From the NCBI RefSeq assembly GCF_058153355.1, contig NZ_CM177019.1: DNA of 64,000 nt; one strand, written 5' to 3'. This document shows, piece after piece, positions 10,803-58,990 of this stretch. The notes beneath the pieces were generated by a model that did not search any database, had not been told where the DNA came from, and was given only the letters and a program-made list of their open reading frames with translations. A program made the translations under genes and the position numbers. The number at the start of each line of letters is the position of its first letter. Positions within the stretch are counted from its first letter, which is position 1.

Positions 10803-12029
<1,227 letters not shown>

Positions 12030-29235: not shown

Positions 29236-29240
29236 AAGTA

Positions 29241-37356: not shown

Positions 37357-37965
37357 TCAAGCCTTTGGCGGTTCGGTGCGGGCAAAACTTTCGCGGCTAA
37401 ACAGGTTTTCGACCAGTTTGACTAAGTGTGGGCGGTCGACACACCAGCCTGGCGCAACGCGGCGGAAATTGAGATATCCGACGGCACAGGCAATGGCGAT
37501 AGTCGCCAGATTGACCGTATCGGTTTTGAGCGTGCCATCGACCAGATATCCTTCCAGCACATCCAGACTGCGGTTGATTTTCTCCCGCTGGCGTAATAAT
37601 TCATCTTCAGACTGCTGCGGCGCCGGACGTGCCTGTTCACGCACCGACACCAGCCCGGCATCCATAATGCCATCCGCCAGCGCCTCAATTTTGCGCACCC
37701 GCAACGACTCCAGCGGATCGCGCGGCAACATCGCCGGAGCGACATTCATTAATTCAATATATTCAGCGATGATCGGCGAATCAAACCAACATTCGCCCTC
37801 TTCGGTCACCAGCACCGGCACTTTCCCTAACGGGTTAAATTGCGCCACGCCGTTGTCTGCGTTATAGGGCAGTTCATTAATAAATTCGAAAGTTATGCCC
37901 TTTTCTAACAACAGAATAGAAAGTTTGCGTACAAACGGGCTGGTGTAGCTACCGACGAGTTTCAT
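37357..37965 (-). CDS. yibF: Glutathione S-transferase-like protein
   Basis: 202 aa, GST N-terminal thioredoxin-like region and C-terminal domain. Confidence 0.85.
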
Positions 37966-38180: not shown

Positions 38181-40493
38181 ATGTCCTCAGAAGGATTACG
38201 TTTCACGCTGTCGGTGGCCGGTATCGTGGAGATGGCGACGGCGGTGGTGAGCTTCCGTCTGTACCAGCACCACTGCACGCCGTTCATCCTGGATGTGGAT
38301 ATCGCCAGCGGGCTGCCCGACCTGACGGCGGAGGATTTTCTGGAGAAGAGCGCGGTGCTGACGGTCTGGCAGGGTGATATCCCGCAGCGTTACGTCAGCG
38401 GTATCGTGACGGAGGTGCAGCTCGGTGAGAACAACGACTGGCAGATGCGTTATTCCCTGAGCATCAGCCCGCCGCTGTGGCGGGCAGGGTTACGGCAGAA
38501 CTTCCGTATCTTCCAGCAGCAGGACATTCAGACGATATCAGCACAGCTTCTGAGAGAGAACGGGGTGACGGCGTGGATGCCGCTGTTCTATGAGGCGCAC
38601 CCGGCGCGGGAGTTCTGCGTGCAGTACGGGGAGAGCGACCTGGCATTCCTGACCCGGCTGTGGGCGGAGGAAGGTATCTTCTTTTATGAGCGCTGCGGTC
38701 AGGAAGGGCCGGAGCAGAAGCTGGCGGTGTGTGATGACGTGGCGGGGCTGACGGGAATGGGGGCGCTGGCGTTTAACCCGAATACCACGACCGGGGGAAC
38801 GACGGAGTACATCAGTGAGTTTCGTTACCGTGCGCAGATAAGCGTGGCGTCGGTGGAGACGCAGGATTATACGTTCAAAACGCCGGGGTGGCCGGGGTAC
38901 TACAGCCATGACGGGGAGAGCCTGAACGGGCAGGGAACGCAGTACGAGATATTTGATTATCCGGGGCGTTTCAAGGATGAGCAGCATGGCCAGGATTTTG
39001 CGCGTTACCAGACGGAAGGGTGGCGGAACGGGGCGGAGACGGCGAGCGGGGTGTGTAACACGGCGCGGCTGTGGCCGGGAACGCGGTTCCGGCTGACGGG
39101 CCATCCCTCAGAGACGCTGAACCGGGAATGGCAGGTTGTGGGAAGCACACTGCGGGGAGAACAGCCGCAGGCGCTGCACGGGAGTCACGGTGAAGGGACG
39201 ACACTGAGCAATCAGTTTGAGGTGATACCGGCAGACAGGACGTGGCGTCACGCGCCGCTGCCGAAGCCGAAGGTGGACGGCCCGCAGAGTGCCATCGTGA
39301 CCGGGCCGAAGGGTGAGGAGATATTCTGCGACGAGCATGGCCGGGTACGGGTGAAGTTTCACTGGGACCGTTATCACGGGATGACGGAGGAGAGTTCGTG
39401 CTGGATACGGGTGTCGCAGGCATGGGCGGGACCGGGGTTCGGCAATCTGGCGATACCGCGTGTGGGTCAGGAAGTGATAGTGGACTTTCTGAACGGCGAC
39501 CCGGACCAGCCCATTGTGACGGGGCGGACCTACCATGAAGATAACCGTTCACCGGGGGATTTACCGGGCACGCGGACGCAGATGACCATCCGCTCGAAGA
39601 CCTATAAAGGAAGCGGCTTTAATGAACTGCGTTTCGAGGATGCGACGGACAGTGAGCAGGTGTATATCCACGCGCAGAAGAACATGGACACGGAGGTGCT
39701 TAACGACCGGACGACGGACGTGAAGCATGACCATACGGAGACCATCGGTAACGACCAGAAGATAAGGGTGGTGAAGGGGCAGACGGTTGAGGTCGGCACC
39801 AGAAAAGAAGGGGGTCACGACCAGAGTATCACGGTGGCGAACGACCGGCGCATAACGGTACGTAATGACCAGACGCTGAAGGTGACGAATGACCGGACGG
39901 TGAGCGTGAGTCACGATGACGGCCTGTATGTCAGAAACGACCGTAAAGTGACGGTGGAAGGGAAGCAGGAGCATAAGACGACGGGGAACCATATCAGCCT
40001 GGTGGAGGGAAAGCACAGTCTGGAGGTGAAGGGCGACCTGGCGGAGAAGGTGAGTGGCGCGCTGGGGATCAAGGTGGACGGGGATATCGTGCTGGAGAGC
40101 AGCAGCCGGATAAGCCTGAAAGTGGGCGGCTCGTTCGTGGTGATACACTCTGGCGGTGTGGATATTGCGGGGCCGAAGATAAACCTCAACGGGGGAGGCA
40201 GTCCGGGGACGCCAGTACAGACGTTACAACCGGTGGTACTGGAGGCGCTGGAGGATGAGAATGATGATGAGAACCCTGAAAAATATACTCTCCAGTTCCA
40301 TTTTACAGACGATGACGGGATACCGTATTCAGAGACACGCTACATTGCCTTCTTTGAGGACGGCACGCAGACGCGAGGGGAGACGGATGAAAATGGGTAT
40401 ACGGAAACATTCTCCACTGACAGCGAGCAGACAATCGAAGTCAGATTGTTGCATTTGAATATCGATATGATATGGGGAGGGATTAATGAATAG
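38181..40493 (+). CDS. vgrG: Type VI secretion spike protein VgrG (copy 1) with ~80-aa C-terminal extension (possible transthyretin-like adaptor domain)
   Basis: 770 aa from MSSEGLRFTLSVAGIVE…; gp27-like N-domain, gp5-like OB/beta-helix region with repeated VxVxV-type strands (…ITVANDRRITVRNDQTLKVTNDRTVSVSHDD…), then …VVIHSGGVDIAGPKINLNGGGSPG and an extension …YTLQFHFTDDDGIPYSETRYIAFFEDGTQTRGETDENGYTETF…. No YD repeats, so not Rhs. Confidence 0.9.
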   Translation: MSSEGLRFTLSVAGIVEMATAVVSFRLYQHHCTPFILDVDIASGLPDLTAEDFLEKSAVLTVWQGDIPQRYVSGIVTEVQLGENNDWQMRYSLSISPPLWRAGLRQNFRIFQQQDIQTISAQLLRENGVTAWMPLFYEAHPAREFCVQYGESDLAFLTRLWAEEGIFFYERCGQEGPEQKLAVCDDVAGLTGMGALAFNPNTTTGGTTEYISEFRYRAQISVASVETQDYTFKTPGWPGYYSHDGESLNGQGTQYEIFDYPGRFKDEQHGQDFARYQTEGWRNGAETASGVCNTARLWPGTRFRLTGHPSETLNREWQVVGSTLRGEQPQALHGSHGEGTTLSNQFEVIPADRTWRHAPLPKPKVDGPQSAIVTGPKGEEIFCDEHGRVRVKFHWDRYHGMTEESSCWIRVSQAWAGPGFGNLAIPRVGQEVIVDFLNGDPDQPIVTGRTYHEDNRSPGDLPGTRTQMTIRSKTYKGSGFNELRFEDATDSEQVYIHAQKNMDTEVLNDRTTDVKHDHTETIGNDQKIRVVKGQTVEVGTRKEGGHDQSITVANDRRITVRNDQTLKVTNDRTVSVSHDDGLYVRNDRKVTVEGKQEHKTTGNHISLVEGKHSLEVKGDLAEKVSGALGIKVDGDIVLESSSRISLKVGGSFVVIHSGGVDIAGPKINLNGGGSPGTPVQTLQPVVLEALEDENDDENPEKYTLQFHFTDDDGIPYSETRYIAFFEDGTQTRGETDENGYTETFSTDSEQTIEVRLLHLNIDMIWGGINE
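39163..40040. repeat. Near-identical ~0.9-kb vgrG 3'-core repeat, copy 1 of 3
   Basis: Sequence and six-frame antisense ORFs are identical to 43497-44374 and 49075-49900 (e.g. ORF 39602-39799 = 43935-44132 = 49459-49656). Confidence 0.85.
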
Positions 40494-40576
40494 AGAGTGA
40501 CCGCCTGTAATTGGCGTGTTTTTGCATAAATGGAACAGGGTTTTGTAGTGAAAACATATTGCTAAGGAGGATTTAT

Positions 40577-41422
40577 ATGGGAGATGGAAAGGGTAGTACG
40601 AGCGGAAAAAGCCAGAGCGGTGAACAGTGTGTAGTTTTAAAGGAGGGAAAAATTACTAATGATTTTAAAATAATGATGAGAGAGGCTCTGAAGGCGCTGA
40701 TGGCTGTATTGAAGAAAAGAGTAGAAGATCTTGGTGATAAATGGGGAGAGGAACAAAATCAGGAGTTTATAAATATATTTGGTATTGATGGAAATACTTA
40801 TATTAAATTAGAGTTCCCTTTCGGGGGGCGTAAGGTTATGTTTCCAGAGAATATAAAGGCAAGGGATTATATGAGAAATGGCGTTACTCGCCTGTATGAG
40901 ATATGTGGGGAATTATCTGTGGAAGGTGATTGTGTAGACGTTACTATTCATGACCATTTCCTCAAACGTGATGCCAATTGTAATCTTGTTCTTAATGACA
41001 AAGGGGGTAATGAATATGTTGACAAAGACGTAATCAGGCCCAAAACCGGTAACTTTGTGAATTGTACAGATAATGACGCTTATGCTGCCAATGTAACTTA
41101 CGATCAGATTTTGGGTGTAAAACCTGGAGGCTTTAAAAGTTTGGTAAGTATAACTATAGGACAAAGATTTATAGATAGGCCACCCACTGGGAAAAACTCT
41201 AAGGCATCGACACTCTGCCATGAACTATCTCACTTTATAAGGTACGGGGATTCATTTAAGTTTGGAGGCATGTGGACGGAAGATATGCCGGTAGATATAG
41301 AGTATAATACAGGTGACGAATATATTGTTCATGCCACTAAATTAAAAAATGATAAAAAATCAGAACTATTTCAGAATGCATATAATATCGAACGTTATTT
41401 CGAGATTCATGTACCATATTGA
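40577..41422 (+). CDS. Putative T6SS effector, HExxH zincin-like metallopeptidase candidate
   Basis: 281 aa from ATG 40577 (RBS aaggagg upstream); AT-rich; HELSH motif at 41219-41233 followed by …GGMWTEDMPVDIEYNTGDEY…; no signal peptide; directly downstream of vgrG-1. Confidence 0.55.
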   Translation: MGDGKGSTSGKSQSGEQCVVLKEGKITNDFKIMMREALKALMAVLKKRVEDLGDKWGEEQNQEFINIFGIDGNTYIKLEFPFGGRKVMFPENIKARDYMRNGVTRLYEICGELSVEGDCVDVTIHDHFLKRDANCNLVLNDKGGNEYVDKDVIRPKTGNFVNCTDNDAYAANVTYDQILGVKPGGFKSLVSITIGQRFIDRPPTGKNSKASTLCHELSHFIRYGDSFKFGGMWTEDMPVDIEYNTGDEYIVHATKLKNDKKSELFQNAYNIERYFEIHVPY

Positions 41423-41446
41423 TGCTTTTATTTGACGGGGGAGTAT

Positions 41447-42355
41447 ATGCTTGCTAGATGGATTGTTTTTATTGTTTTTTTTGCGCATCCAATATTTGCT
41501 TATGATATCTCTGGCGATTATGCTGTTCATTACAGATATGGGAAGTTATATTGGAATGGAGTAATGGACAAACTTGGTGTCTATCCTCGTGTAGAGCCGA
41601 CAAGGCTTAATTATTATGATTATTATGATGATCTTTCAGCCTATGCTGTTTTTCAATATTATACTATCAGTAAAAATGAGAGTCAGTATAATCAAGATAA
41701 AAATAAAATATATCTTCATCTTTCCGTGCATCAGAAAGAAAATATTGTAGCAGCTGCAGTGGTTTTATCGAATAAAAGCCAGGGATCTTATTTTGTTCAT
41801 CGACTAACTCTTCCTCTTGACGTTAACGGCGGGCCTTACTCTTCCTTGTGTAGTGGTGTGTTTATACCGATAATGGATAACATTCAGTTGGATTTTTTAA
41901 AAAAAACAAAATGTAGCTTTGGTGAATGGAAAAATAAATCCGTTTGGCACGAGATATTAACAGGGAAAGAGCTATCCTTTGATGTCATATTGAACGATTA
42001 TTATGCCTTTTTACCGGGCATTCATCGTTATAATATAGGAACGGTAGAATTTACAATAGTTAATCAAGAGTGGTTTACAGAACAATGTATATATGAGTAT
42101 TTTCTTTCTATTATGAACTGGCGGGCAGAAAGTGAGTGTACTAATCCTATAGATAAAATAAGATATGGTATAGAGGAGTGGCGGGTTTGGAGAATTTGTG
42201 GACCTTATCGTGGGTCAGGTCTATTTCAGGATTTTTTAGCACGCTTTGGCTATCATGGCGGTAATGATAATATATTCAAAATAAGATCAAATCAGGTTGT
42301 GGTTACTATTGATGGGGATAGGGCATCTCCTCCTTATTCGTTGAGGAATTATTAA
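41447..42355 (+). CDS. Putative cognate immunity protein (secreted/periplasmic) for the HExxH effector
   Basis: ~303 aa with N-terminal signal peptide MLARWIVFIVFFAHPIFA; AT-rich; starts 24 bp after the effector stop; no recognisable family. Confidence 0.45.
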   Translation: MLARWIVFIVFFAHPIFAYDISGDYAVHYRYGKLYWNGVMDKLGVYPRVEPTRLNYYDYYDDLSAYAVFQYYTISKNESQYNQDKNKIYLHLSVHQKENIVAAAVVLSNKSQGSYFVHRLTLPLDVNGGPYSSLCSGVFIPIMDNIQLDFLKKTKCSFGEWKNKSVWHEILTGKELSFDVILNDYYAFLPGIHRYNIGTVEFTIVNQEWFTEQCIYEYFLSIMNWRAESECTNPIDKIRYGIEEWRVWRICGPYRGSGLFQDFLARFGYHGGNDNIFKIRSNQVVVTIDGDRASPPYSLRNY

Positions 42356-42510
42356 TGTTAACTTATTGTCATGGCTACAATTCGTTGGTTTTCCTGTTGA
42401 GATGATAATATATATGAGAAAAACAGGCAATGAACCAGTGAGAGAATATCAGAAGATACGGTCAACATCGGTTAATTACTTTTTCCTGTAGCGATACCAG
42501 GGAGGTCATC

Positions 42511-44712
42511 ATGTCATTAAAAGGGCTGCGCTTTACGCTGACGGTGGACGGACTGGTGCCGGAGACGTTTGCGGTGGTGGATTTCCGCCTCACGCAGGCA
42601 TACTCATCGCCGTTCGTCCTGGATGTGGACGTTGCCAGCGACTCGTTCCGCCAGACGGCGGAGAAGCTGCTGGAGAAGGGGGCCGTACTGACCATCTGGC
42701 AGGGTGGCACGGCGCTGCGTTATGTGAGCGGTGTGGTGTCGGGGTTCGGCATGAAGGAGCACAACGGCTGGCAGATGCAGTACCACCTTCAGATACGTCC
42801 GCCCCTGTGGCGCAGCGGGCTGCGCCAGAACTACCGAATCTTCCAGCAGCAGGACATTCAGGCCATCTCCGCCACGCTGTTAAACGAGGACGGAGTGACG
42901 CAGTGGACGCCGCGCTTTTATGAGAGCCACCCGGCACGGGAGTTCTGCGTCCAGTACGGTGAAAGCGACATGGCGTTTCTGACCCGGCTGTGGGCGGGGG
43001 AAGGCATCTTCTTTTATGACAGATACGCTGACGACAGCCCGGAGCAGACGCTCACGCTGTGCGATGATGTGGCGGGCCTGCCGGTGTACGGGGAGATACC
43101 GTTTAACCCGAACACCCGTGAGGTGACGACGGCGTGCATCAGCCTGTTCCGCTACCAGGCGCAGGTGCGGCCCTCGCAGGTGCGTTCAAAAGACCACACG
43201 TTTAAGGTGCCGGACTGGCCGGGTATTTACATTGAGGATGCTGAAAACCTCAACGGGCAACTGAAGCAGTACAAAATCCTGGACTGGCCGGGGCGCTACA
43301 AGGACGAGCAGCATGGTCAGGACTTTACCCGCTACCGGCTGGAAGGGCTGCGTAACAGTGCTGAAACCGCCACAGGTATCAGTAACTCCCCGGCGCTGTG
43401 GCCGGGACGGCGGTTCACCTTGACGGGGCATCCGGTACAGGGAGCGAACCCGAACCGTGAGTGGCAGGTGGTGAGCAGCACGCTGACGGGGAGCCAGCCG
43501 CAGGCGCTGCACGGGAGTCACGGTGAAGGGACGACACTGAGCAATCAGTTTGAGGTGATACCGGCAGACAGGACGTGGCGTCACGCGCCGCTGCCGAAGC
43601 CGAAGGTGGACGGCCCGCAGAGTGCCATCGTGACCGGGCCGAAGGGTGAGGAGATATTCTGCGACGAGCATGGCCGGGTACGGGTGAAGTTTCACTGGGA
43701 CCGTTATCACGGGATGACGGAGGAGAGTTCGTGCTGGATACGGGTGTCGCAGGCATGGGCGGGACCGGGGTTCGGCAATCTGGCGATACCGCGTGTGGGT
43801 CAGGAAGTGATAGTGGACTTTCTGAACGGCGACCCGGACCAGCCCATTGTGACGGGGCGGACCTACCATGAAGATAACCGTTCACCGGGGGATTTACCGG
43901 GCACGCGGACGCAGATGACCATCCGCTCGAAGACCTATAAAGGAAGCGGCTTTAATGAACTGCGTTTCGAGGATGCGACGGACAGTGAGCAGGTGTATAT
44001 CCACGCGCAGAAGAACATGGACACGGAGGTGCTTAACGACCGGACGACGGACGTGAAGCATGACCATACGGAGACCATCGGTAACGACCAGAAGATAAGG
44101 GTGGTGAAGGGGCAGACGGTTGAGGTCGGCACCAGAAAAGAAGGGGGTCACGACCAGAGTATCACGGTGGCGAACGACCGGCGCATAACGGTACGTAATG
44201 ACCAGACGCTGAAGGTGACGAATGACCGGACGGTGAGCGTGAGTCACGATGACGGCCTGTATGTCAGAAACGACCGTAAAGTGACGGTGGAAGGGAAGCA
44301 GGAGCATAAGACGACGGGGAACCATATCAGCCTGGTGGAGGGAAAGCACAGTCTGGAGGTGAAGGGCGACCTGGCGAGGAAGATTACCGGTGCGCTGGGA
44401 ATGAAGGTCCGGAATGAAATCGTACTGGAGAGTGGCGGTAAAATCACCCTAAAGGTGGGTGGTTCGTTTGTGGTCATCCATTCAGGGGGCGTGGACATCG
44501 TCGGGCCGAAAATCAATCTCAATAGCGGCGGTAGTCCGGGAACGCCGGTGCCGACGCTACGACCGGCGGTTTTGAAAGCGCTGGCAGATTATGACAATGG
44601 CGGACCTGGAACTGAAGGGGCGGAGCCACCACGGAAAAGTGTACAGGAAGCCTTTGATCCTCCCCAGCAGGATAAGGTACCGCCACAACGGCCGGGAAGA
44701 TTCTCACGATAA
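42511..44712 (+). CDS. vgrG: Type VI secretion spike protein VgrG (copy 2)
   Basis: 733 aa from MSLKGLRFTLTVDGLVPETFAVVDF…; same architecture as copy 1; short Pro/Gln-rich C-terminal tail. Confidence 0.9.
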   Translation: MSLKGLRFTLTVDGLVPETFAVVDFRLTQAYSSPFVLDVDVASDSFRQTAEKLLEKGAVLTIWQGGTALRYVSGVVSGFGMKEHNGWQMQYHLQIRPPLWRSGLRQNYRIFQQQDIQAISATLLNEDGVTQWTPRFYESHPAREFCVQYGESDMAFLTRLWAGEGIFFYDRYADDSPEQTLTLCDDVAGLPVYGEIPFNPNTREVTTACISLFRYQAQVRPSQVRSKDHTFKVPDWPGIYIEDAENLNGQLKQYKILDWPGRYKDEQHGQDFTRYRLEGLRNSAETATGISNSPALWPGRRFTLTGHPVQGANPNREWQVVSSTLTGSQPQALHGSHGEGTTLSNQFEVIPADRTWRHAPLPKPKVDGPQSAIVTGPKGEEIFCDEHGRVRVKFHWDRYHGMTEESSCWIRVSQAWAGPGFGNLAIPRVGQEVIVDFLNGDPDQPIVTGRTYHEDNRSPGDLPGTRTQMTIRSKTYKGSGFNELRFEDATDSEQVYIHAQKNMDTEVLNDRTTDVKHDHTETIGNDQKIRVVKGQTVEVGTRKEGGHDQSITVANDRRITVRNDQTLKVTNDRTVSVSHDDGLYVRNDRKVTVEGKQEHKTTGNHISLVEGKHSLEVKGDLARKITGALGMKVRNEIVLESGGKITLKVGGSFVVIHSGGVDIVGPKINLNSGGSPGTPVPTLRPAVLKALADYDNGGPGTEGAEPPRKSVQEAFDPPQQDKVPPQRPGRFSR
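43497..44374. repeat. Near-identical ~0.9-kb vgrG 3'-core repeat, copy 2 of 3
   Basis: See copy 1. Confidence 0.85.
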
Positions 44713-44721
44713 GGACTGAAC

Positions 44722-47211
44722 ATGAAAATCAGCCATCCCATCAGGGATAAAGAAGGCAAAGAGTTTCGCTCACTGGATGAGATAATGCGGCTTATTGACA
44801 AAGAAGCGCACGGAACCTGGCTGCTGGGTGGAAACGGGCTGTGGCACGGCGGGATACATATCAGTGACGTGTCTAATCCGTTATCAGCCCTGAAACCGGA
44901 TACCGCCGCTACCGGAGAACCGGTTCCTCTTCAGTTTATGGCCGATGGCACCATTGCGGCGTACCGGATAAATAATGATTACCTGAAAGGCCCCTACAAA
45001 GGGCAGCAACTCCGTTACAGCAGCACATTTGTTCTGGTGAAATCGCAGTGCCAGCCAGACCCGCAAAAAAAAGAAAGCTGGCTGGAATTTTACTGTCTCT
45101 ATATGCATCTGGCCCCGGTGAACGATTATCCCGGCTCCCCCTGCTATAAAGTTAAAACCGGGCATGGTGGCATATTGCTGCACCGATACATCCCGGGAAA
45201 GAACGGCCTTCCCGAGGGGCAGGAAAGCGGAGATCATGCCACGTACTGGATACCCCCGAAAATCAGCGGAAACAGGACACTTAATGCGGGAGATCGGTTT
45301 GTGTCATCCCGGACCGGACGTTTTTACGTGACCAATAACGGCCAGCCGGTCCTGACGACATTCGGACTGGTTCGCCTGCTGGAAGGCAATAAACCGGGGA
45401 ATGAGCAGTACTGGGTGACCCTGGATCCGGATCTGATGGAGTCAGATGGCGAAATACAGATGCTGATGCCTGAGTGGATGCAGAAGGCGAAGGCAAAAGG
45501 CATTTTTGACTCGGTACAGACGGTCGACGAAACGGAAGAGTGGAAAGTCAGTGCCGGAACACCGGTCGGATTTATGGGATGCGAGGATTATCCTGGCGAG
45601 GGAAGCGGTGAGATTGAGCGCGAGTGGTTCGTCCATCTGGAGGTTCTGAGTACAGACCCGAATATGCCAAAGTTCTTATCCAACCCGGCAGGCGTTAAGG
45701 GAGAAAAACGGACTGTTCTGGCACCAAAAGGGATAATTTTATACACCCGGCAGGCCGTTCCGGGACAGGAGGTATTTACCGCAACCGCAGCCACGCTGGG
45801 TGCTCAGCGCGTTCTTCCGCGGGAAGCCACGACACCAGTCACGGATGAATCGCAGCAGTGGTGGTTTAATATCACCGGAACCGGCTGGCTGCCACAAAAG
45901 GATGTTGAAGAGGCCGGACAGTATGATTTACTGAAGCTGGGTTTTCAACCGCTGGAGGAGAACAGCAGCGGTGACATGACGTACAGCCCGTACGAAGGAT
46001 GGGTGCCGGAAGCGTTTGACTCAATAAGCCGTGCCGCAGAACAGGGAGATGAGTGGCTGTATGAGCAGGTACCGCCCTTTTATCGTGAGCTGATGGCGGG
46101 TATGGATCAGGACGGTGATGGAAAAGTGACGGAGGAAGAGATCAGACAGGCGCTGATCGTGCGTGAACCACTGGTGAGAAATGTGGTGAATCATCTGATA
46201 GTTAAACACCACAGCGAATGGTACGGAGGGCGCTCGACAGGGCGGTGGGAAGGATTTTATAAAGATCTGGATACAGAGGAAGTGGCATACTGTGAGAAGT
46301 GGCAGCTGGATCTGGAGTGGATGAGCGGGGTATCTCCGTTTAATAGTGATGATGCTGTGTGGCATTTTCATCCGGTTGTGTTTTTGGACGCTATTAATTC
46401 CAAATCTGTGTGTGCTTGCAACAGAGATATAACATTAGATGAATTAAAAAAAGTTGCTCCTGCAGTAAGTGAAGGTCTTCTCAAAAGGTACCTCTACGAT
46501 ATAAATGCAGGGTTTATTCGGTTTGGTATGACCACTTGTAGAGAAAAAGCCCATTTTCTTGCTCAAATTATTCACGAGAGCGGTTATTTTAGATATACCA
46601 AAGAAATTAATGGTGAATCAGCTTCATATAGTCCGTGGTATGGCCGAGGCTTAATACAAGTTACAGGCGAAAGTAATTACACCGCCTATGGGGAATATAT
46701 CAATGAGGACGTAACATCTTCAGATTCCGCAAGAGATAAACTCATATCCTCCCCACATTGCGTATTATCTGCGTTTTGGTATTTCAATATATTCAAAAGA
46801 ATAAATGAAGATGCTAAAAATGATGATTTTAATAAAATTACAGTAGTGATTAATGGAGGGTATAATCATTATGATGAACGGTTGTCGATATTTAATAAAT
46901 TGGTTACCTCACTTGCTGCCGAGCATTTAAATCAGAAAGAAATGAACGACGATTTCTTGTTTGATGATAGTGACGTATATGATAATAAAGTATATGCTTT
47001 GGGATGGGGGATATGGCATGATCCTGATAGCTCCCGAAGAGGGACGATCAAGAGTAACGAAGAAGCATTAAAAGGTTATAGAAGGGCGAAAGAATTAATT
47101 GACCTGCATCCGTTTCCTCAGGAAGGGCGTGAGGGTGATAGAAAAGTATATGGAATAGAAAAAAGGAATATATCCACATTTGTAGAGAGACGAATAACTG
47201 AACTGGAGTAA
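44722..47211 (+). CDS. Large T6SS effector: possible M23/LytM-like N-region, EF-hand calcium-binding motif, C-terminal GH19/lysozyme-like peptidoglycan hydrolase domain
   Basis: 829 aa; EF-hand loop DQDGDGKVTEEE (~46102); C-terminal …REKAHFLAQIIHESGYFRYTKEINGESASYSPWYGRGLIQVTGESNYTAYG… (from ~46537) matches the GH19 / 'predicted chitinase' catalytic signature; N-region WHGGIHISDV…ADGTIAAY…YMHL resembles a divergent M23 peptidase (tentative). Confidence 0.7.
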   Translation: MKISHPIRDKEGKEFRSLDEIMRLIDKEAHGTWLLGGNGLWHGGIHISDVSNPLSALKPDTAATGEPVPLQFMADGTIAAYRINNDYLKGPYKGQQLRYSSTFVLVKSQCQPDPQKKESWLEFYCLYMHLAPVNDYPGSPCYKVKTGHGGILLHRYIPGKNGLPEGQESGDHATYWIPPKISGNRTLNAGDRFVSSRTGRFYVTNNGQPVLTTFGLVRLLEGNKPGNEQYWVTLDPDLMESDGEIQMLMPEWMQKAKAKGIFDSVQTVDETEEWKVSAGTPVGFMGCEDYPGEGSGEIEREWFVHLEVLSTDPNMPKFLSNPAGVKGEKRTVLAPKGIILYTRQAVPGQEVFTATAATLGAQRVLPREATTPVTDESQQWWFNITGTGWLPQKDVEEAGQYDLLKLGFQPLEENSSGDMTYSPYEGWVPEAFDSISRAAEQGDEWLYEQVPPFYRELMAGMDQDGDGKVTEEEIRQALIVREPLVRNVVNHLIVKHHSEWYGGRSTGRWEGFYKDLDTEEVAYCEKWQLDLEWMSGVSPFNSDDAVWHFHPVVFLDAINSKSVCACNRDITLDELKKVAPAVSEGLLKRYLYDINAGFIRFGMTTCREKAHFLAQIIHESGYFRYTKEINGESASYSPWYGRGLIQVTGESNYTAYGEYINEDVTSSDSARDKLISSPHCVLSAFWYFNIFKRINEDAKNDDFNKITVVINGGYNHYDERLSIFNKLVTSLAAEHLNQKEMNDDFLFDDSDVYDNKVYALGWGIWHDPDSSRRGTIKSNEEALKGYRRAKELIDLHPFPQEGREGDRKVYGIEKRNISTFVERRITELE

Positions 47212-47216
47212 TTGAT

Positions 47217-47627
47217 ATGAAAGTTAATTTATTGGTTTTACTGTTTTGTTTGGTGCCTTGTTGTTTATTGGCTAAACAACAAACAACGGTAGGCTGTTTT
47301 AGCGCTGGGAAAACAAATTTAAAGTTTGTTGAAATATCGTCTGGCGATATTTTTTTAGGTTATGTGATTTATGAGAAATCCTCAAAATTTATACCTCTTG
47401 CGTTTATAAATAAATTAGAAGTGACTTTCGATGACAGGCCTTCTGAATTTTCTTATGCATGGAGCGAGGTTGTAAATGGAAAAATTAATGGGTTGTATGT
47501 TGTTTCCACACAAGGTGCAAGATTTAATTTGTTTCATTATAAATCAATAAGTGGGAAAACAACTGAGTTTGAAGAAAATATTGAGGCATATAATGATGAT
47601 GGTACTGATTGCAAATGGACTGGATGA
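47217..47627 (+). CDS. Putative periplasmic immunity protein for the lysozyme-like effector
   Basis: 136 aa with N-terminal signal sequence MKVNLLVLLFCLVPCCLLA; begins 5 bp after the effector stop; AT-rich. Confidence 0.45.
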   Translation: MKVNLLVLLFCLVPCCLLAKQQTTVGCFSAGKTNLKFVEISSGDIFLGYVIYEKSSKFIPLAFINKLEVTFDDRPSEFSYAWSEVVNGKINGLYVVSTQGARFNLFHYKSISGKTTEFEENIEAYNDDGTDCKWTG

Positions 47628-47775
47628 CCATTGTGCAGTTTTTTATGAAATCGATGCTGTGTTATTAAAATAATAATGCGACTAGGTTGAATTTGTTTAT
47701 TATTAATTTAAATGTTTTATGATTTTAAGTTAGACATGAATAACTGACTGGAAAATTATTTTTGAGGGATATCGT

Positions 47776-49070
47776 ACAGGCAGGCAGGGAAAGATCACGT
47801 AACGCTGCTTTTTTGTACTATACAATTCGCATTTTATGTTTGAAAATTGAGATATTCCTCATTACCTGAAGCTGTTTTTTATTGCTTATACATGATCAAA
47901 TACTCCTTACATAATTAAGGAGAACAAAATGGTACTTAAAAAATTGATGGAACATATTTCTATTATCCCCGATTACAGACAAGCCTGGAAAGTGGAACAT
48001 AAATTATCGGATATTCTACTGTTGACTATTTGCGCCGTTATTTCGGGTGCAGAAGGCTGGGAAGATATAGAGGATTTTGGGGAAACACATCTCGATTTTT
48101 TGAAGCAATATGGTGATTTTGAAAATGGTATTCCTGTTCACGATACCATTGTCAGAGTTGTATCCTGTATCAGTCCTGCAAAATTTCACGAGTGCTTTAT
48201 TAACTGGATGCGTGACTGCCATTCTTCAGATGATAAAGGCGTCATTGCAATTGATGGAAAAACGCTCCGGCACTCTTATGACAAGAGTCGCCGCAGGGGA
48301 GCGATTCATGTCATTAGTGCGTTCTCAACAATGCACAGTCTGGTCATCGGACAGATCAAGACGGATGAGAAATCCAATGAGATTACAGCTATCCCAGAAC
48401 TTCTTAACATGCTGGATATTAAAGGAAAAATCATCACAACTGATGCGATGGGTTGCCAGAAAGATATTGCAGAGAAGATACAAAAACAGGGAGGTGATTA
48501 TTTATTCGCGGTAAAAGGAAACCAGGGGCGGCTAAATAAAGCCTTTGAGGAAAAATTTCCGCTGAAAGAATTAAATAATCCAGATCATGACAGTTAAGCG
48601 ATTAGTGAAAAGAGTCACGGCAGAGAAAAAATCCGTCTTCATATTGTTTGCGATGTCCCTGATGAACTTATTGATTTCACGTTTGAATGGAAAGGTCTGA
48701 AGAAATTATGCGTGGCAGTCTCCTTTCGGTTAATAATAGCAGAACAAAAGAAAGAGCCAGAAATGACGGTCAGATATTATATCAGTTCTGCTGATTTAAC
48801 CGCAGAGAAGTTCGCCACAGCAATCCGAAACCACTGGCACGTGGAGAATAAGCTGCACTGGCGTCTGGACGTGGTAATGAATGAAGACGACTGCAAAATA
48901 AGAAGAGGAAACGCCGCAGAATTATTTTCAGGGATACGGCACATCGCTATTAATATTTTAACGAATGATAAGGTATTCAAGGCAGGGTTAAGACGTAAGA
49001 TGCGAAAAGCAGCCATGGACAGAAACTATCTCGCGTCAGTCCTTGCGGGGAGCGGGCTTTCGTAATCTTG
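47776..49070 (+). mobile_element. ISAs1-family (H-repeat / ISEc1-like) element inserted into vgrG copy 3
   Basis: ~1.3 kb; contains the H-repeat transposase gene; left-end sequence (gtacaggcagggaaagatcac…) recurs at 51856 and ~53976; right end abuts vgrG sequence beginning mid-gene (…FEVIPADRTW…). Confidence 0.7.
47929..49065 (+). pseudogene. ISAs1-family transposase (H-repeat protein, YhhI-like) with an in-frame TAA at 48595-48597
   Basis: ORFs 47929-48597 and 48712-49065 are in the same frame and both match the H-repeat protein ([58 protein letters not shown]… and …[41 protein letters not shown]…); full span would encode 378 aa. Confidence 0.8.
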
Positions 49071-49074
49071 CCCT

Positions 49075-49900
49075 GGAGGTGATACCGGCGGACAGGACGT
49101 GGCGTCACGCGCCCCTGCCGAAGCCGAAGGTGGACGGCCCGCAGAGTGCCATCGTGACCGGGCCGAAGGGCGAGGAGATATTCTGCGACGAGCATGGCCG
49201 GGTACGGGTGAAGTTTCACTGGGACCGTTATCACGGGATGACGGAGGAGAGTTCATGCTGGATACGGGCGTCGCAGGCATGGGCGGGACCGGGGTTCGGC
49301 AATCTGGCGATACCGCGTGTGGGTCAGGAAGTGATAGTGGACTTTCTGAACGGCGACCCGGACCAGCCCATTGTGACGGGGCGGACATACCATGAGGACA
49401 ACCGTTCACCGGGGGATTTACCGGGCACGCGGACGCAGATGACCATCCGCTCGAAGACCTATAAAGGAAGCGGCTTTAATGAACTGCGTTTCGAGGATGC
49501 GACGGACAGTGAGCAGGTGTATATCCACGCGCAGAAGAACATGGACACGGAGGTGCTTAACGACCGGACGACGGACGTGAAGCATGACCATACGGAGACC
49601 ATCGGTAACGACCAGAAGATAAGGGTGGTGAAGGGGCAGACGGTTGAGGTCGGCACCAGAAAAGAAGGGGGTCACGACCAGAGTATCACGGTGGCGAACG
49701 ACCGGCGCATAACGGTACGTAATGACCAGACGCTGAAGGTGACGAATGACCGGACGGTGAGCGTGAGTCACGATGACGGCCTGTATGTCAGAAACGACCG
49801 TAAAGTGACGGTGGAAGGGAAGCAGGAGCATAAGACGACGGGGAACCATATCAGTCTGGTGGAGGGAACGCACAGTCTGGAGGTGAAGGGCGACCTGGCG
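49075..49900. repeat. Near-identical vgrG 3'-core repeat, copy 3 of 3
   Basis: See copy 1. Confidence 0.8.
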
Positions 49901-51492
49901 AGGAAGATTACCGGTGCGCTGGGAATGAAGGTCCGGGATGAAATCGTACTGGAGAGTGGTGGTAAAATCACCCTGAAGTGGGTGGCTCGTTTGTGGTCGT
50001 TCATTCTGGTGGTGTGGATATTGTCGGACCGAAAATAAATCTGAATTGCGGGCGCAGTCCGGGGACGCCGATAAATACACTACAACCGGCAGTTATGGAC
50101 GCTCTGGCTGACGAGCAGTATGACAGAGGGAATGCTGGCGGCGGGAATGACGGAGAGCCTAGTGATGAGGATGAATCAGAAGGTGGAGAAGAAGACAAGG
50201 ACGATTCAGATGAACTGGTAATTCCTGTATACGCAAAATCTTGTCTGAAGGAGAAAGGCTGCACTGATGCTGGTACGACCATGGAGCCATCGAAACATTT
50301 TGGTGATATGGCTCTATTTGCCCAGCCAGTGGAGGATGACTGTTGCGGCTATGGTACACACTATCATGACGATGAAGTGGAGCAACTTGCGCAGTCAGCA
50401 AAAAAAACCTCAGGAGCGAACTCACTGACGGGGGAAATGACAGTTGCGTCAGCGGGTGTTGCGGTTCCACTAGCGGCGGAACAGTCTGCGGGAGTTTTAA
50501 CTCGCGTATGGGGAACATTAGGGGCATGGGGTGGAGAAGGTTTTTTAAGTGTATCAAAAACGGTGCCAGCCCTTGGTGTCCTAGTATCAGCACTATATCC
50601 AATACCTGCCGGTGAAGGTAGTGATAAAGTTCCTGGACGGGATGAACAGTGGCTCGAAAATGAGCTACGTCGTAAAGCGCAATCTGGAGAGACGGCAGCT
50701 ACGCGGGCGCGCTTTCTCTTTCAGCGGAATACTGCTGGTGAATTGAGGACATACGGATACCACACACCCGCAGGTTCGGAACTTGAAGGTGTTCGGGTAG
50801 CATTGATGGAGTGGAATAAGGAATTTTCCCGTTATGAATTTTCACCTGTGTCTGATTCGGGACCAAAAATATTTTGGACGCCTGCAAAGCCAGAAGGTTC
50901 AGAGCAGCCCATACACACCGGAACTCCTGTCGAACCAGTTGATCTACCTGATATTTATGTTAATCCGATACCCGATGAAAAAACAGATATCACCACGCCG
51001 CCTTCTCCAATGCCGGAGGAGCGAAATTTTAATGACTGGATACTTGTCTTTCCTGACGGTGCGGAATTAACACCAATATATGTGTATCTGAAAACTGCAA
51101 GGGATGTAGCGGGAACAGTAACAGGTAAGGGGGAGGTGTTAGCAGGTACAGGAAGATGGCTGTCGCAGGCGGGGAAAAGCTTAGGAGTGCCAATTCCACA
51201 ACAGGTCGCAAATAAACTTCGGAGTAAGTCATTTAACAATTTTGATGAATTCATGGCAGCTTTCTGGACTGCTGTAGGTGAATGTCCAGAACTATTGAGC
51301 CAATTTAATAAAGCTAACCAAACGTTGATAAAGCGTGGACGCGCACCTTATACTATATCAAGACAAAGAGTTGGGGGGCGAGGTACATTTGAAATTCATC
51401 ATATTGACGAAATCCAATATGGGGGAGAAGTCTATGATATTGATAATCTTAGAGTAAACACACCTAAAAACCACATACGATTGCATAAATAA
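49075..51492 (+). pseudogene. vgrG: vgrG copy 3, 'evolved' VgrG with C-terminal colicin E9/pyocin-type HNH DNase domain; 5'-truncated by ISAs1 and carrying a -1 frameshift near 49976
   Basis: Starts mid-gene at the ISAs1 right end; vgrG frame runs to ~49976 where ctgaagtgggtgg has lost one G relative to copies 1/2 (ctgaaggtgggtgg); downstream frame continues through a linker to …GVPIPQQVANKLRSKSFNNFDEFMAAFWTAVGECPELLSQ…RQRVGGRGTFEIHHIDEIQYGGEVYDIDNLRVNTPKNHIRLHK (~51169-51489), which aligns closely with the colicin E9 DNase domain. Confidence 0.8.
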
Positions 51493-51505: not shown

Positions 51506-51778
51506 ATGGAGTTTAAAAATAATCTAGAAGATTATACGGAAGATGAATTTATCGAACTTCTAAATAATTTTTTTGAACCACCTGAGGAATTGCATGGCGA
51601 TAAGTTGTCGAAGTTTATTGATGATCTTGTAAGTCATTTTATTAGAATCACTCAGCACCCAGATGGTAGTGATTTGATATTCTATCCATCTGAAGATAGA
51701 GAAGATAGTCCCCAAGGGATTGTTGATGAGTTAAAACGATGGCGAGCATCGCAGGGGCTAGGATGCTTTAAAATATAA
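51506..51778 (+). CDS. Colicin E9-type DNase immunity protein (Im9-like)
   Basis: 90 aa: MEFKNNLEDYTEDEFIELLNNFF…HFIRITQHPDGSDLIFYPSEDREDSPQGIVDELKRWRASQG aligns along its length with Im9 (MELKHSISDYTEAEFLQLV…[35 protein letters not shown]); strong RBS aaggagg; 13 bp after the DNase stop. Confidence 0.85.
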   Translation: MEFKNNLEDYTEDEFIELLNNFFEPPEELHGDKLSKFIDDLVSHFIRITQHPDGSDLIFYPSEDREDSPQGIVDELKRWRASQGLGCFKI

Positions 51779-51855: not shown

Positions 51856-52301
51856 TGGTACAGGGAAAGATCACCAGAAGTACACTTTTTGTACTAAATA
51901 ATTCGCATTTTATGTTCAATAATTGAGATATTCCTCATTACCTGAGGCTGTTTTTTATTGCTTATACATGATCAAATACTCCTTACATAATTAAGGAGAA
52001 CAAAATGGAACTTAAAAAATTGATGGAACATATTTCTGTTATTCCTGATTACAGACAAGCCTGGAAAGTGGAACATAAATTGTCGGATATTCTACTTTTG
52101 ACTATTTGCTCCGTCATTTCTGGTACAGAAGGCTGGCAAGATATAGAGAATTTTGGGGAAACACATCTCGATTTTTTGAAGCGACATGGTGATTTTTGAA
52201 ATGGTATTCCTGTTCACATACCATTGCCAGAGTTGTATCCTGTATCAGCCCTGCAAAATTTCATGAGTGCTTTATTAAAAGGAAACCAGGGGCGGCTTAA
52301 T
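51856..52301 (+). mobile_element. Degraded ISAs1/H-repeat remnant (left end plus internally deleted transposase fragment) fused to effector sequence
   Basis: Left-end sequence and transposase N-terminus ([58 protein letters not shown]…) present, then a deletion to the internal …KGNQGRLN segment, which joins directly to effector-2-like sequence at ~52302. Confidence 0.6.
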
Positions 52302-53465
52302 ATCACCGGAACCGGCTGGCTGCCACAAAAGGATGTTGAAGAGGCCGGACAGTATGATTTACTGAAGCTGGGTTTTCAACCGCTGGAGGAGAACAGCAGC
52401 GGTGACATGACGTACAGCCCGTACGAAGGATGGGTGCCGGAAGCGTTTGACTCAATAAGCCGTGCCGCAGAACAGGGAGATGAGTGGCTGTATGAGCAGG
52501 TACCGCCCTTTTATCGTGAGCTGATGGCGGGTATGGATCAGGACGGTGATGGAAAAGTGACGGAGGAAGAGATCAGACAGGCGCTGACCGTGCGTGAACC
52601 ACTGGTGAGAAATGTGGTGAATCGTCTGACAGTCAGACACCACAGCGAGTGGTACGGCGGTCGCTCGACGGGACGCTGGGAAGGGTTTTATAAAGATCTG
52701 GACACCGAGGAAGTGGCATACTGTGAAAAGTGGCAGCTGGATCTGGAGTGGATGAGCGGGGTGTCTCCGTTTAATAGTGATGATGCTGTGTGGCATTTTC
52801 ATCCGGTTGTGTTTTTGAATGCTATTAATAATAGCAATTACCCAAAAACTCCTGTGAATAATGAACTTATTCCATTGGAATTTTTACGATTTTATAACGG
52901 AGATACCATTGATGATGCAGACTATGAAAATGCTGCAAGGACACTACAATGCGAAGTGGCTGCAATTAAAGCTGTTGCAAAAACTGAAACTGGTAGTTCC
53001 GGTAGCTATTTTAAATTTGAACAAGAAGATGATTACGTCCCCTCAATTCTTTTTGAAAGACATCATTTCCATCGATATACGAATGGTGTGTATGATTCTC
53101 AACCTGATATTTCCAACAGCCGTTCTGGCGGTTATGGAACACGATCGGAGCAATATCAAAAATTACTTCGTGCATATGTTTTAGATAAGCAAGCTGCGCT
53201 TAAATCGGCATCGTGGGGTAAATTTCAGATATTGGCTTCAAATTACCAAGCTACCGGGTACTCTTCGCCCGAAGAGTTTATAATATCGATTTCAGAGTTA
53301 GAGAAAAACCATCTGGCGGCATTCATTAACTTCATAAAATCTAATCCTGTATTATTGCGTGCTATTAGAGATAAAGATTGGCTTAACTTTGCTCTATGTT
53401 ATAATGGGCAAAGTCAGCGAGGATATGATGACAGAATAAGGGCTAATTATGAGCAATATAGATAG
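52302..53465 (+). CDS. Orphan effector 3' module: conserved effector mid-region fused to a muramidase-like (PF11860/DUF3380-type) C-terminal domain; 5' end replaced by the H-repeat remnant
   Basis: 52302-52817 is ~97% identical to effector-2 45871-46386 (NITGTGWLPQKDVEEAGQYDLLK…EF-hand…VWHFHPVVFL), after which the sequence diverges into …AAIKAVAKTETGSSGSYFKFEQEDDYVPSILFERHHFHRYT…SASWGKFQILASNYQATGYSSPEEFI…NGQSQRGYDDRIRANYEQY, resembling the N-acetylmuramidase family (recalled motif pattern, not searched). Confidence 0.55.
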   Translation: MTGTGWLPQKDVEEAGQYDLLKLGFQPLEENSSGDMTYSPYEGWVPEAFDSISRAAEQGDEWLYEQVPPFYRELMAGMDQDGDGKVTEEEIRQALTVREPLVRNVVNRLTVRHHSEWYGGRSTGRWEGFYKDLDTEEVAYCEKWQLDLEWMSGVSPFNSDDAVWHFHPVVFLNAINNSNYPKTPVNNELIPLEFLRFYNGDTIDDADYENAARTLQCEVAAIKAVAKTETGSSGSYFKFEQEDDYVPSILFERHHFHRYTNGVYDSQPDISNSRSGGYGTRSEQYQKLLRAYVLDKQAALKSASWGKFQILASNYQATGYSSPEEFIISISELEKNHLAAFINFIKSNPVLLRAIRDKDWLNFALCYNGQSQRGYDDRIRANYEQYR

Positions 53466-53898
53466 AGCATTAATTTTTATTTTTTTATCTGGAATTCCCT
53501 GGACTCTACACGCAGGAAATAATTATTTTTTATGTAATACATCCAAAGGAACTTTGTCATTAACAAGTTTTGGTGAAACGTTGATTTATGAAATGAATAG
53601 TCAGCATGGGAATAAATTTCAATTCATTTCAGATGGACCAATGTATTCAGGATTTTTTTATAATCATTACTCCAGATTTCAAACGGATTACTTTAGCGTT
53701 AGTTTTATTCAAAGTGGATATAAGTACTCCGTGTTTAGCAATTACGACAACGGTAGTAACATGCGAGGGGTTAGTGTCATTGATATGAAAACAAAAAAAG
53801 AATACGTTTATAATTGCAAAGATTATAAAGTGGACAGGCTTTATAATCTGAAAAAAAAGCTTAAATGTGATATTAATAATGTACTAAGTTGTCAGTAA
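53449..53898 (+). CDS. Putative periplasmic immunity protein for the muramidase-like toxin module
   Basis: 149 aa, hydrophobic N-terminus MSNIDRALIFIFLSGIPWTLHA; overlaps the effector stop by 17 nt; very AT-rich. Confidence 0.4.
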   Translation: MSNIDRALIFIFLSGIPWTLHAGNNYFLCNTSKGTLSLTSFGETLIYEMNSQHGNKFQFISDGPMYSGFFYNHYSRFQTDYFSVSFIQSGYKYSVFSNYDNGSNMRGVSVIDMKTKKEYVYNCKDYKVDRLYNLKKKLKCDINNVLSCQ

Positions 53899-53975: not shown

Positions 53976-54645
53976 ATAAAGGTAAAGACCATATAACGCC
54001 GATTTTTTGCACTAAACAATTAGCACTAAATGTCCAATAATCAAGATATCCCTTATTATTTAATAAGTGTTTTCATAGCTTATATATATTCAGACACTCC
54101 TTACATAAACAAGGAGAAAAAATGGAACTTAAAAAATTAATGGAGCATATTTCTACTGTCCCGATTACAGACAAGTCTGGAAAGTAGAGTATAAATTATC
54201 AGATATCCTAGTGCTGATTATTTTCGCCATCCTTTCCGGAGCTGAAGGATGGGAAGATATAGAGGATTCTGGTGAGACTCATCTCGATTTGTTGAAGCAA
54301 TATGGTGATTTTTAATATGGTATTCCTATTCACGATATCATTGCCAGAGTTGTGTCCTGTATCAGTCCTGGAAAATTTCACGAGTTCTTTATTAGCTGGA
54401 TGTGTGACTGTCATTCTTCAGATAATAAAACCATCATCGCAATAGATGGAAAAGCACTCCAGCACTTTTTTGATTAGCATCGTCGCAGAGGAACAATTCA
54501 TAATCATTGCGATCTCGACGATGTATAGTCTGATCCTGCGGCAGAACAAGACGGATAAAAAATCTAATGAGAGCACACTCATCAAGAACTTCTCAACCTA
54601 ATGAATATTAAAGAAAAATCATCGCAGCCAATGAAGTAATATGCA
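53976..54645 (+). mobile_element. Heavily degraded ISAs1/H-repeat remnant (multiple stops/frameshifts, 3' truncated)
   Basis: Recognisable but broken transposase N-terminus ([11 protein letters not shown]…[28 protein letters not shown]…); preceded at 53921-53975 by another fragment of the effector mid-region (…YDLLKL…LEEN…). Confidence 0.55.
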
Positions 54646-55834: not shown

Positions 55835-55836
55835 AT

Positions 55837-56199
55837 TTAGATCTCCGGGAACGTGGAATAGTCAGTCTTTTTCTCGGCGGCGAGTTGATGCTCCAGCCGG
55901 GAAATTCGGTCAGAAAGTGCGGCGATTTCCGGGTCAGTCGCTTTCTCCTGCGACGCAACATGTGACTGCATACCCCAGCCACGCTCCGGTTGATAGAGCG
56001 TCGCCCAGATCCACAGGAACGGCCAGATAACATGCAGAGTAAACAGGCTCACCCAGCCCGCCGTATGAATAGCGTCGGCATGGGGGTGATTGCGCTTTTT
56101 GGCAATCAGATAAGGGATGTCATGTATCGCGATGATTCCATAAAAAATCACCAGAAAGACGAAGATCAGCACTCCCAACGCGAAATAGTTTAGAAACAT
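55837..56199 (-). CDS. yibI: DUF3302 small inner-membrane protein (yiaW paralogue)
   Basis: 120 aa: [45 protein letters not shown]…. Confidence 0.85.

Positions 56200-58659: not shown

Positions 58660-58990
<331 letters not shown>

Follow-up and report, generated by a model that had tools for sequence, protein, structure and literature searches.

The window analyzed here is a stretch of 64,000 nucleotides of contig NZ_CM177019.1 (NCBI RefSeq assembly GCF_058153355.1), from an Escherichia lineage. Between the genes yibF and yibH, it carries an island of 16.7 kb made up of vgrG genes, which encode spike proteins of type VI secretion systems (T6SS), of effector genes, of known or putative immunity genes, and of insertion sequences (IS) of the ISAs1 family. 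One tract occurs three times in this island, and its two copies lying within intact vgrG genes are identical. This identity probably results from gene conversion, and the tract is likely to have served as a site of exchange for effector cassettes.

Two intact vgrG genes and their shared core

The two intact genes, vgrG1 and vgrG2 (Table 1), encode proteins of the same architecture. In VgrG1, Pfam domains are found at residues 33-328 (Phage_GPD), 385-451 (Phage_base_V), and 468-542 (Gp5_trimer_C), and the protein scores 589 bits against TIGR03361, the cutoff of which is 186. The same three Pfam domains are present in VgrG2. Both proteins therefore possess the gp27-like head, the gp5 OB-fold, and the beta-helix that characterize the T6SS spike VgrG/TssI.

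Copies 1 and 2 of the repeated tract, carried by vgrG1 and vgrG2, are 100% identical over 882 bp (39162-40043 and 43495-44376), as established by self-BLAST and by register-by-register comparison; the self-comparison for repeats covered 34-58 kb of the window. Copy 3, further downstream, differs from them at 10 of 825 positions (98.8% identity), with a longest perfect run of 455 bp. All the copies are on the plus strand, and their start-to-start spacing is 4333 bp between copies 1 and 2 and 5524 bp between copies 2 and 3. Moreover, the open reading frames (ORFs) on the opposite strand at 39602-39799, 43935-44132, and 49459-49656 have the same sequence in all three. These measurements bear out an initial annotation of the window, which had reported three near-identical direct repeats of about 0.9 kb, 4.3 and 5.5 kb apart, with identical antisense ORFs and with diverged N-terminal halves of the encoded proteins. 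Indeed, the two N-terminal peptides that it quoted are present in VgrG1 and VgrG2, and heads 1 and 2 are 63.5% identical at the amino acid level. Because they are long, direct, and identical or nearly so, the repeats are legitimate substrates for RecA. The inversion that had also been proposed is impossible between them, since every copy is direct; the island contains no inverted copy, and no inverted repeat of at least 40 nt was found in 34-56 kb.

According to the Pfam matches, the shared core spans the end of Phage_GPD, the Phage_base_V OB-fold, and Gp5_trimer_C with the first part of the beta-helix. Outside the core, the nucleotide identity between vgrG1 and vgrG2 is about 60-80%. Downstream of 40043, the end of the helix is about 70% identical over some 175 bp, and the C-termini that follow a GSPGTP motif are unrelated; the sequences from the core to the 3' end, 450 bp in vgrG1 and 336 bp in vgrG2, differ. 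Because the heads differ as well as the tails, the repeat is a mid-gene gp5/beta-helix “neck” and not the 3' end of vgrG, where it had first been placed. Its description as DUF2345-like has to be abandoned as well, for PF10106 matched neither VgrG1 nor VgrG2 in Pfam at E <= 0.01. The actual 3' tails of the vgrG genes vary and are linked to the cargo.

Origin of the identity between copies

In a Nei-Gojobori comparison of vgrG1 with vgrG2, none of the 201 synonymous sites of the core differs, as against a synonymous divergence (dS) of 0.88 for the heads and a saturated one for the end of the helix. Chance is excluded, because the flanks differ at about 30% of the bases and the core at no synonymous site. 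Strong purifying selection on the trimer interface formed by the OB-fold and the beta-helix, acting without recombination, might be invoked, since no structural part of VgrG is more conserved than the one encoded by the tract and, in Enterobacteriaceae homologues, the core is typically 70-98% identical in amino acids vs. 55-96% for the head. However, selection at the protein level cannot explain an identity that extends to the synonymous sites while the flanks have diverged. It also leaves aside the sharp boundaries of the tract, as well as the mosaic patches and the private mutation common to both copies that are described below. This explanation is refuted by the synonymous sites, and we regard it as hardly conceivable.

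The comparison with relatives suggests a direction for the exchange. MFDS1022581 (L001) and N96 (L003) have the same layout as the window, that is vgrG1, a gene for an M35-like effector, vgrG2, and a gene for an effector of 829 aa. In these two complete genomes the cores are also near-identical (99-100% over about 39300-39975), and the phenomenon itself is therefore real. The core of the relatives' vgrG1 differs from that of the window at 6 sites. For their vgrG2, the comparison with the window's core gives 21 mismatches and 4 gaps, and about 25 of these differences are packed in 39185-39257. At all the sites that distinguish the relatives' vgrG2 core, copy 2 of the window has the copy-1-type base. 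In addition, position 39398 is a G in both window copies and an A in all five other sequences, which makes it a private single-nucleotide polymorphism. The simplest reading of these bases is that copy 2 was overwritten by copy-1-type sequence in this lineage, after the private mutation arose; copy 2 would then probably be the recipient of a copy-1-type gene conversion. The locus combines the features of an intragenomic gene conversion: a sharp tract, identity at synonymous sites, non-identical copies in relatives, and a derived base in both paralogues.

Copy 3 is a mosaic. It is of the vgrG2 type at about 30 diagnostic sites of 49901-49977, where the intact homologue of this module, found at another locus of MFDS1022581 (L008, see below), is of the vgrG1 type. 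Around this patch, copy 3 is close to L008, with which it has two diagnostic core bases in common and is 98-100% identical from about 50010. The 77-bp patch was copied from the neighboring vgrG2, or is common to both.

Could the perfect identity of copies 1 and 2 have been produced by assembly or polishing? The two copies would then truly differ by about 2-3% and would have been homogenized by consensus collapse or by multi-mapped reads. It is true that the perfect identity coincides exactly with the tract in which the relatives, too, have near-identical copies, and that the exact proteins of the window occur in no other public assembly, hence no independent confirmation. But copy 3, which is only about 1% different, remained distinct, and the contig passes through all three copies with unique flanks. 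On both sides, the divergent flanks begin sharply and in register. Furthermore, about 25 of the 70 bases in 39185-39257 differ in the relatives' copy 2, enough for unique read placement, and copy 2 of the window is cleanly of the copy-1 type there. An artifact is thus quite improbable, and gene conversion remains the preferred origin of the identity.

Displaced modules, cargo genes, and insertion sequences

Table 1. Features of the vgrG island and of its flanks (positions in the window).
Feature	Position	Strand	Description
yibF, glutathione S-transferase, left flank	37357..37965	-	Glutathione S-transferase Pfam domains; yibF annotation in syntenic E. coli records
vgrG1	38181..40493	+	Intact T6SS spike gene, 770 aa: head 1, shared core, tail 1
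Repeat copy 1, shared core	39162..40043	+	VgrG1 residues 328-620
Cassette-1 effector, M35-type metallopeptidase-like	40511..41422	+	HExxH-like CHELSH motif; N96 orthologue annotated M35 family metalloendopeptidase
Putative cassette-1 immunity gene	41432..42355	+	Product starts with a signal-peptide-like sequence (MLARWIVFIAFF...)
vgrG2	42511..44712	+	Intact T6SS spike gene, 733 aa: head 2, shared core, tail 2
Repeat copy 2	43495..44376	+	Identical to copy 1; shared core of vgrG2
Cassette-2 effector, 829 aa	44722..47211	+	EF-hand match; conserved GC-rich N-terminal two thirds, AT-rich C-terminal tip
Putative immunity gene for the 829-aa effector, 136-aa ORF	47217..47627	+	Position only; no family match (Pfam, NCBIfam)
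ISAs1 copy A, H-rpt type, full length 1291 bp	47785..49075	+	Frameshifted transposase
Repeat copy 3, core of decapitated vgrG remnant	49076..49900	+	98.8% identical to copies 1 and 2; without gp27-like head
vgrG2-type patch in copy 3	49901..49977	+	77 bp; about 30 diagnostic sites match vgrG2; ends at 1-nt deletion
Tail 3, S-type pyocin region, colicin/pyocin DNase	49978..51492	+	Pyocin_S 231-370, Col-Pyo_DNase 379-504 (Pfam)
Colicin/pyocin DNase immunity gene, intact, orphan	51506..51778	+	PF01320, E = 1.5e-32
ISAs1 copy B, 5' fragment, 418 bp	51861..52278	+	91.6% identical to 47785-48203
Orphan 5'-truncated effector fragment	52287..53465	+	EF-hand region, then N-acetylmuramidase tip (PF11860, E = 3.7e-44)
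Putative immunity gene for the muramidase tip, 149-aa ORF	53449..53898	+	Position only; no family match
ISAs1 copy C, degenerate fragment	53980..54626	+	80% identical to 47786-48438; ISAs1 pseudogene annotation in relatives
yibH (HlyD-family), right flank	54698..55834	-	HlyD/CusB domains; yibH annotation in relatives

The initial annotation had counted three vgrG genes. Only two are intact, and copy 3 belongs to the remnant of another one. Its homology to vgrG starts abruptly at 49076, the base that follows the right end of ISAs1 copy A, and the ORF at 49043-50038 encodes the OB-fold and Gp5_trimer_C only, with no Phage_GPD; it lacks the combination of head and neck that defines a VgrG. Moreover, the reading frame is interrupted at about 49977 by the loss of one G in AAGGTGGG, relative to the intact L008 homologue. 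The latter is located at the ybfA (rhsC) locus of MFDS1022581 (L008 5930-9418, NZ_CP169399.1), where the module forms a single ORF of 1162 aa. This ORF consists of a head 94-100% identical in nucleotides to head 1, followed by the core, tail 3, and the pyocin-DNase part, and an immunity gene (9433-9705) lies downstream. Thus, as in other evolved VgrGs, the parent of copy 3 is one ORF in which VgrG is followed by an S-type pyocin region and an HNH-type DNase, with a colicin/pyocin immunity gene downstream. Unlike them, the gene of the window is decapitated and frameshifted. It is a remnant that retains Pyocin_S, Col-Pyo_DNase, and the PF01320 immunity gene, and the segment 49978..51492 is the displaced 3' part (receptor/translocation region and DNase) of an evolved VgrG. 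In RefSeq, L008 5930-9418 is annotated as a “partial VgrG missing C-terminus” and, separately, an “S-type pyocin domain-containing protein”, so that the annotation probably divides a single evolved VgrG in two.

The succession of vgrG2, copy 3, tail 3, the pyocin-DNase part, and its own immunity gene has the pattern of a C-terminal displacement, or orphan array. A second case is provided by the 829-aa effector, which is followed downstream by the EF-hand/muramidase fragment and the 149-aa ORF. The two effector sequences form another main/orphan pair of repeats (45856-46398 and 52287-52829; 543 bp, 96% identity) with different toxin tips. In the 829-aa effector, the GC content falls from about 54% to 34% near 46400, and the homology within the pair stops where this fall occurs. 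A crossover in this pair would join the N-terminal part of the 829-aa effector to the muramidase tip, with the loss of 6,431 bp, among them copy 3. The 136-aa ORF that follows the effector gene is kept in the relatives.

The cassette-1 effector has no Pfam or NCBIfam match. For the ORF downstream of it (41432..42355), an immunity function is suggested by the signal-peptide-like start of the product. The two ORFs are separate in the window and in MFDS1022581; in N96, they form one ORF of 594 aa (L003 6787-8571) owing to the change of one base at 41421. We considered that the M35 gene might be a pseudogene split in two and dropped this idea; an effector followed by a signal-peptide immunity gene, fused only in N96, is more likely.

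ISAs1 copy A has the features of its family, namely a DDE transposase, a length of about 1.3 kb, and terminal inverted repeats. Its transposase is split over two ORFs, the first (47929-48597) matching DDE_Tnp_1_assoc and DDE_Tnp_1 in Pfam and the second (48712-49065) matching NF033564, the ISAs1 C-terminus, with 102.6 bits for a cutoff of 70; it is probably inactive. The first of these ORFs, of 222 aa, had been a candidate immunity gene, which was rejected as its product is the N-terminal part of the transposase according to Pfam. The terminal inverted repeats, read by eye, match at 16 of 21 bases, and 47810-49075 is 95% identical to a full-length copy in ET350. No target-site duplication is present at the flanks of copy A. 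Copies A and B bound a unit of 4,076 bp composed of the ISAs1 3' part, copy 3 with the pyocin part and its immunity gene, and the ISAs1 5' part, and this unit is absent from the nearest relatives. Instead, these have a single IS fragment that is of the copy-A type until the last 30 bp or so of homology. The IS sequence of copy B breaks off inside the element, at a point equivalent to 48203, and so does that of the relatives' fragment; in both, this is the junction with the orphan effector fragment. The junction in the relatives fits either a deletion between IS copies or the integration of an IS-bearing circle. A 49-mer covering the junction of ISAs1 and copy 3 had no match in GTDB representative genomes or in JGI metagenomes.

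It may then be asked whether the array was built mainly by ISAs1 (H-rpt) elements, IS-bounded units with vgrG 3' ends and toxin/immunity genes moving between hotspots and the vgrG repeats being passive. Several observations go in this direction: a full-length ISAs1 with terminal inverted repeats, and with no target-site duplication, abuts copy 3; the 4,076-bp unit lies between ISAs1 5' repeats here and is absent in the nearest relatives, in which the IS type switches within the last 30 bp or so of homology; and the same pyocin module stands beside ISAs1 copies at ybfA (L008) and at yncG (L002). Nevertheless, such an origin does not account for the 882 identical base pairs of copies 1 and 2, which have no IS at their flanks, for the vgrG2-type bases within copy 3, or for the head/tail switches that occur exactly at the core boundary in IS-free contexts (see below). 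As the main origin of the array, ISAs1 is unlikely; it is more likely that IS activity and core recombination are complementary. In a more specific version, rather doubtful but deserving mention, ISAs1 would act as a shuttle: the 4,076-bp unit would have moved as an IS-bounded circle from a hotspot of the ybfA/yncG type and entered the resident ISAs1 fragment at yibF by a single crossover, and the shared neck would be the handle by which headless, silent modules could be re-armed through recombination or conversion with a resident full-length vgrG. If true, IS movement and core recombination would form a two-step system of toxin acquisition.

The insertion site of the island, identified from the flanking genes and from three syntenic E. 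coli records, is the classical rhsA hotspot in the Escherichia genome. The name “vgr” itself derives from Rhs-associated genes of E. coli. In other strains this site carries RHS genes or nothing, and in strain Z0117EC0005 yibH comes directly after yibF, which corresponds to an empty site. No ORF of the island matches the RHS repeat family in Pfam or NCBIfam; the island is therefore not an Rhs element, since no RHS-repeat protein is present. Along the island, stretches with a GC content of 54-65%, in the vgrG bodies and the conserved part of the effector, alternate with stretches at 31-38%, in the toxin tips and the immunity genes. The yiaK-sgbU region of the source lineage is 90-95% identical to that of most E. 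coli and 98.3% identical to that of a small group. Chi octamers (GCTGGTGG) occur 9 times in the window for 1.85 expected, all of them on the minus strand and none in the island (38-55 kb), a distribution consistent with a horizontally acquired island within a Chi-oriented core genome. A stimulation of recombination by Chi sites was considered and rejected, all 9 octamers of the window being outside the island.

The flanks present some repeats of their own. The yibH/yibI-like genes (HlyD-family and DUF3302) at 54698-56199 have a paralogous pair at 28099-29594; the two pairs share about 70% identity along 1.5 kb and lie in the same orientation, 26.6 kb apart. Downstream of mtlA, intergenic repeats at 58660-58945 consist of two units of about 150 bp, 95% identical and offset by 135 bp, and related pieces of about 30-60 bp are found at 12100-12158 and 10777-10807; these short repeats are possibly elements of the REP/BIME type. 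Finally, genes of the glutathione S-transferase family are located next to or near vgrG islands at three chromosomal sites: yibF (37357-37965), yncG (L002 3504-4121), and another such gene (L010 4265-4933). This proximity may be a coincidence or may reflect a common ancestral context.

Probable exchange of cassettes through the core

Evidence for exchange beyond this genome comes from 120 VgrG homologues, among which heads and tails re-assort. One of them, P0001 (273 member sequences), has a head of the head-1 type and is 96% identical to VgrG1 in amino acids through the core. Its nucleotide sequence is 91-100% identical to vgrG1 up to about 40043 and then 93-100% identical to vgrG2, and it is found in the context hcp-vgrG-DUF4123-DUF3304-Tle1-like. 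Other VgrGs with a head of this type are located at ybfA with unrelated cargo, or beside DUF4123/Tle1-like genes. Conversely, VgrGs with a tail resembling tail 1 and other heads accompany M35 peptidases at yncG. These sequences indicate that the same head and core are joined elsewhere, exactly at the 3' edge of the core, to other tails and cargo.

Taken together, we consider with a probability of about 80% that the locus is a vgrG effector island, the shared core of which is both a product and a substrate of RecA-type recombination, and the cassettes of which are swapped by C-terminal displacement. The functional unit would be a divergent gp27-like head, the shared gp5 OB-fold/beta-helix core, and a unit-specific tail, followed by a toxin gene and an immunity gene. 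Incoming DNA, or a paralogue, would cross over in the core and thereby swap or stack cassettes of tail, cargo, and immunity gene, and C-terminal displacement would leave orphan toxin fragments and retained immunity genes downstream. In culture, unequal exchange between the direct repeats is predicted to yield, at low frequency, deletions of 4,333, 5,524, or 9,857 bp. A crossover between copies 1 and 2 would produce an in-frame VgrG made of head 1, core, and tail 2, with loss of tail 1, of the M35-like effector, of the presumed immunity gene, and of head 2. Between copies 2 and 3, it would remove the 829-aa effector and its neighbor and would usually inherit the frameshift; hence, in most of the homology, such a crossover would not re-arm the pyocin fragment. 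Because the immunity gene is lost, simple deletions would be counter-selected where siblings fire the matching toxin. Duplication followed by recombination, or conversion, would be favored over simple deletion, since the loss of immunity exposes recombinants to attack by siblings, as argued for rhs (PMC3967940).

Several points weigh against this interpretation. The direction of the conversion rests on parsimony from effectively one relative lineage, given that L001 and L003 differ from each other at only one of the tabulated variable sites (41421), and assembly or polishing is a conceivable source of the perfect match between copies 1 and 2. The only structural difference between the window and its relatives is the 4,076-bp ISAs1-bounded unit, and the vgrG repeats are not its bounds. 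Lastly, the deletion junction joining head 1, core, and tail 2 was not found in 5,426 complete E. coli genomes, only three of which carry the parental arrangement. A synthetic query made of head 1, core, tail 2, and effector retrieved only the parental vgrG2, at 90.6% identity. The core variant is present at an identity of at least 95% in only 5 of the 5,426 genomes, and because it is so rare this population test for the deletion is almost powerless. The exact chimeric proteins, including the combination of head 2, core, and tail 1, searched as protein only, are not in a set of 15 billion proteins; the window's own VgrGs are absent from it too, and the exact look-up is uninformative. The recombination and cassette exchange proposed in the initial annotation are thus upheld in kind, by the homogenized tract, the private mutation, the mosaic copy 3, and the re-assortment of heads and tails. 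They are not upheld as to inversion, the number of genes, or the position of the repeat within the gene, and no product of the deletion that it predicted to be frequent was among the genomes searched.

The recombination favored here has close precedents. Rhs genes reportedly form arrays of main and orphan genes (Jackson et al. in 2009). As in such arrays, a full-length gene is followed in the window by 5'-truncated fragments with a shared GC-rich region, AT-rich toxin tips, and immunity genes, and H-rpt/ISAs1 elements accompany the array. In contrast to Rhs arrays, what is conserved here is the neck of VgrG and, in a separate instance, the EF-hand region of the 829-aa effector, there is no RHS/YD-repeat protein, and the orphan pyocin fragment is also frameshifted. 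In Salmonella LT2, recombination between the main and the orphan rhs genes was demonstrated experimentally; it takes place in 522 bp at 95% identity and fuses the main gene to the orphan tip, and simple deletions are held in check by the removal of the immunity gene that lies between (Koskiniemi et al., 2014, PMC3967940).

For vgrG genes, the reference case is vgrG-3 of Vibrio cholerae, in which a conserved 5' region is tipped with different 3' effector regions and immunity genes (Kirchberger et al., 2017, PMC5361080). There, an incoming module, which brings a variable length of conserved vgrG, inserts into the vgrG already present and pushes the previous effector and immunity genes downstream; the previous immunity genes are kept, and mosaics arise by homologous recombination (PMC5361080). 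The island of the window shows the same pattern of C-terminal displacement, which also matches the one described for VgrG and Rhs in bee-gut bacteria (PMC8125069). However, it lies at the rhsA site of E. coli, as an orphan vgrG island, and not in a main T6SS cluster, it stacks in tandem two complete vgrG genes with divergent heads, its displaced fragment begins at an ISAs1 end and not at an illegitimate junction, and its shared tract is a mid-gene neck. In the parts of the literature consulted, vgrG islands of E. coli that carry VT effector modules (Ma et al., 2018, as summarized in PMC6730261) and low-GC vgrG islands of Pantoea and Erwinia (PMC3235180) are described in similar terms: an orphan vgrG precedes effector/immunity pairs of low GC content, among which are lysozyme-like and peptidase toxins, the vgrG bodies are GC-rich whereas the C-terminal extensions and the cargo are low in GC, and partial vgrG genes occur. 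The same parts of PMC6730261 and PMC3235180 catalogue content, without intragenomic conversion between stacked vgrG paralogues.

The locus is a well-preserved example of a known process and does not call for a new mechanism or principle. For annotation, it is relevant that copy 3 is not a gene and that the 1162-aa vgrG::pyocin ORF is split in RefSeq. Such a locus is of use in the quality control of assemblies of repeat-rich toxin islands, and in predicting which strains kill or resist one another. With regard to the biology of VgrG, the spike gene is modular: the conserved neck is the crossover handle, and the tail, the toxin gene, and the immunity gene travel together. Displaced toxins decay while their immunity genes persist, and the island shows in this way how the T6SS arsenal diversifies in Escherichia.

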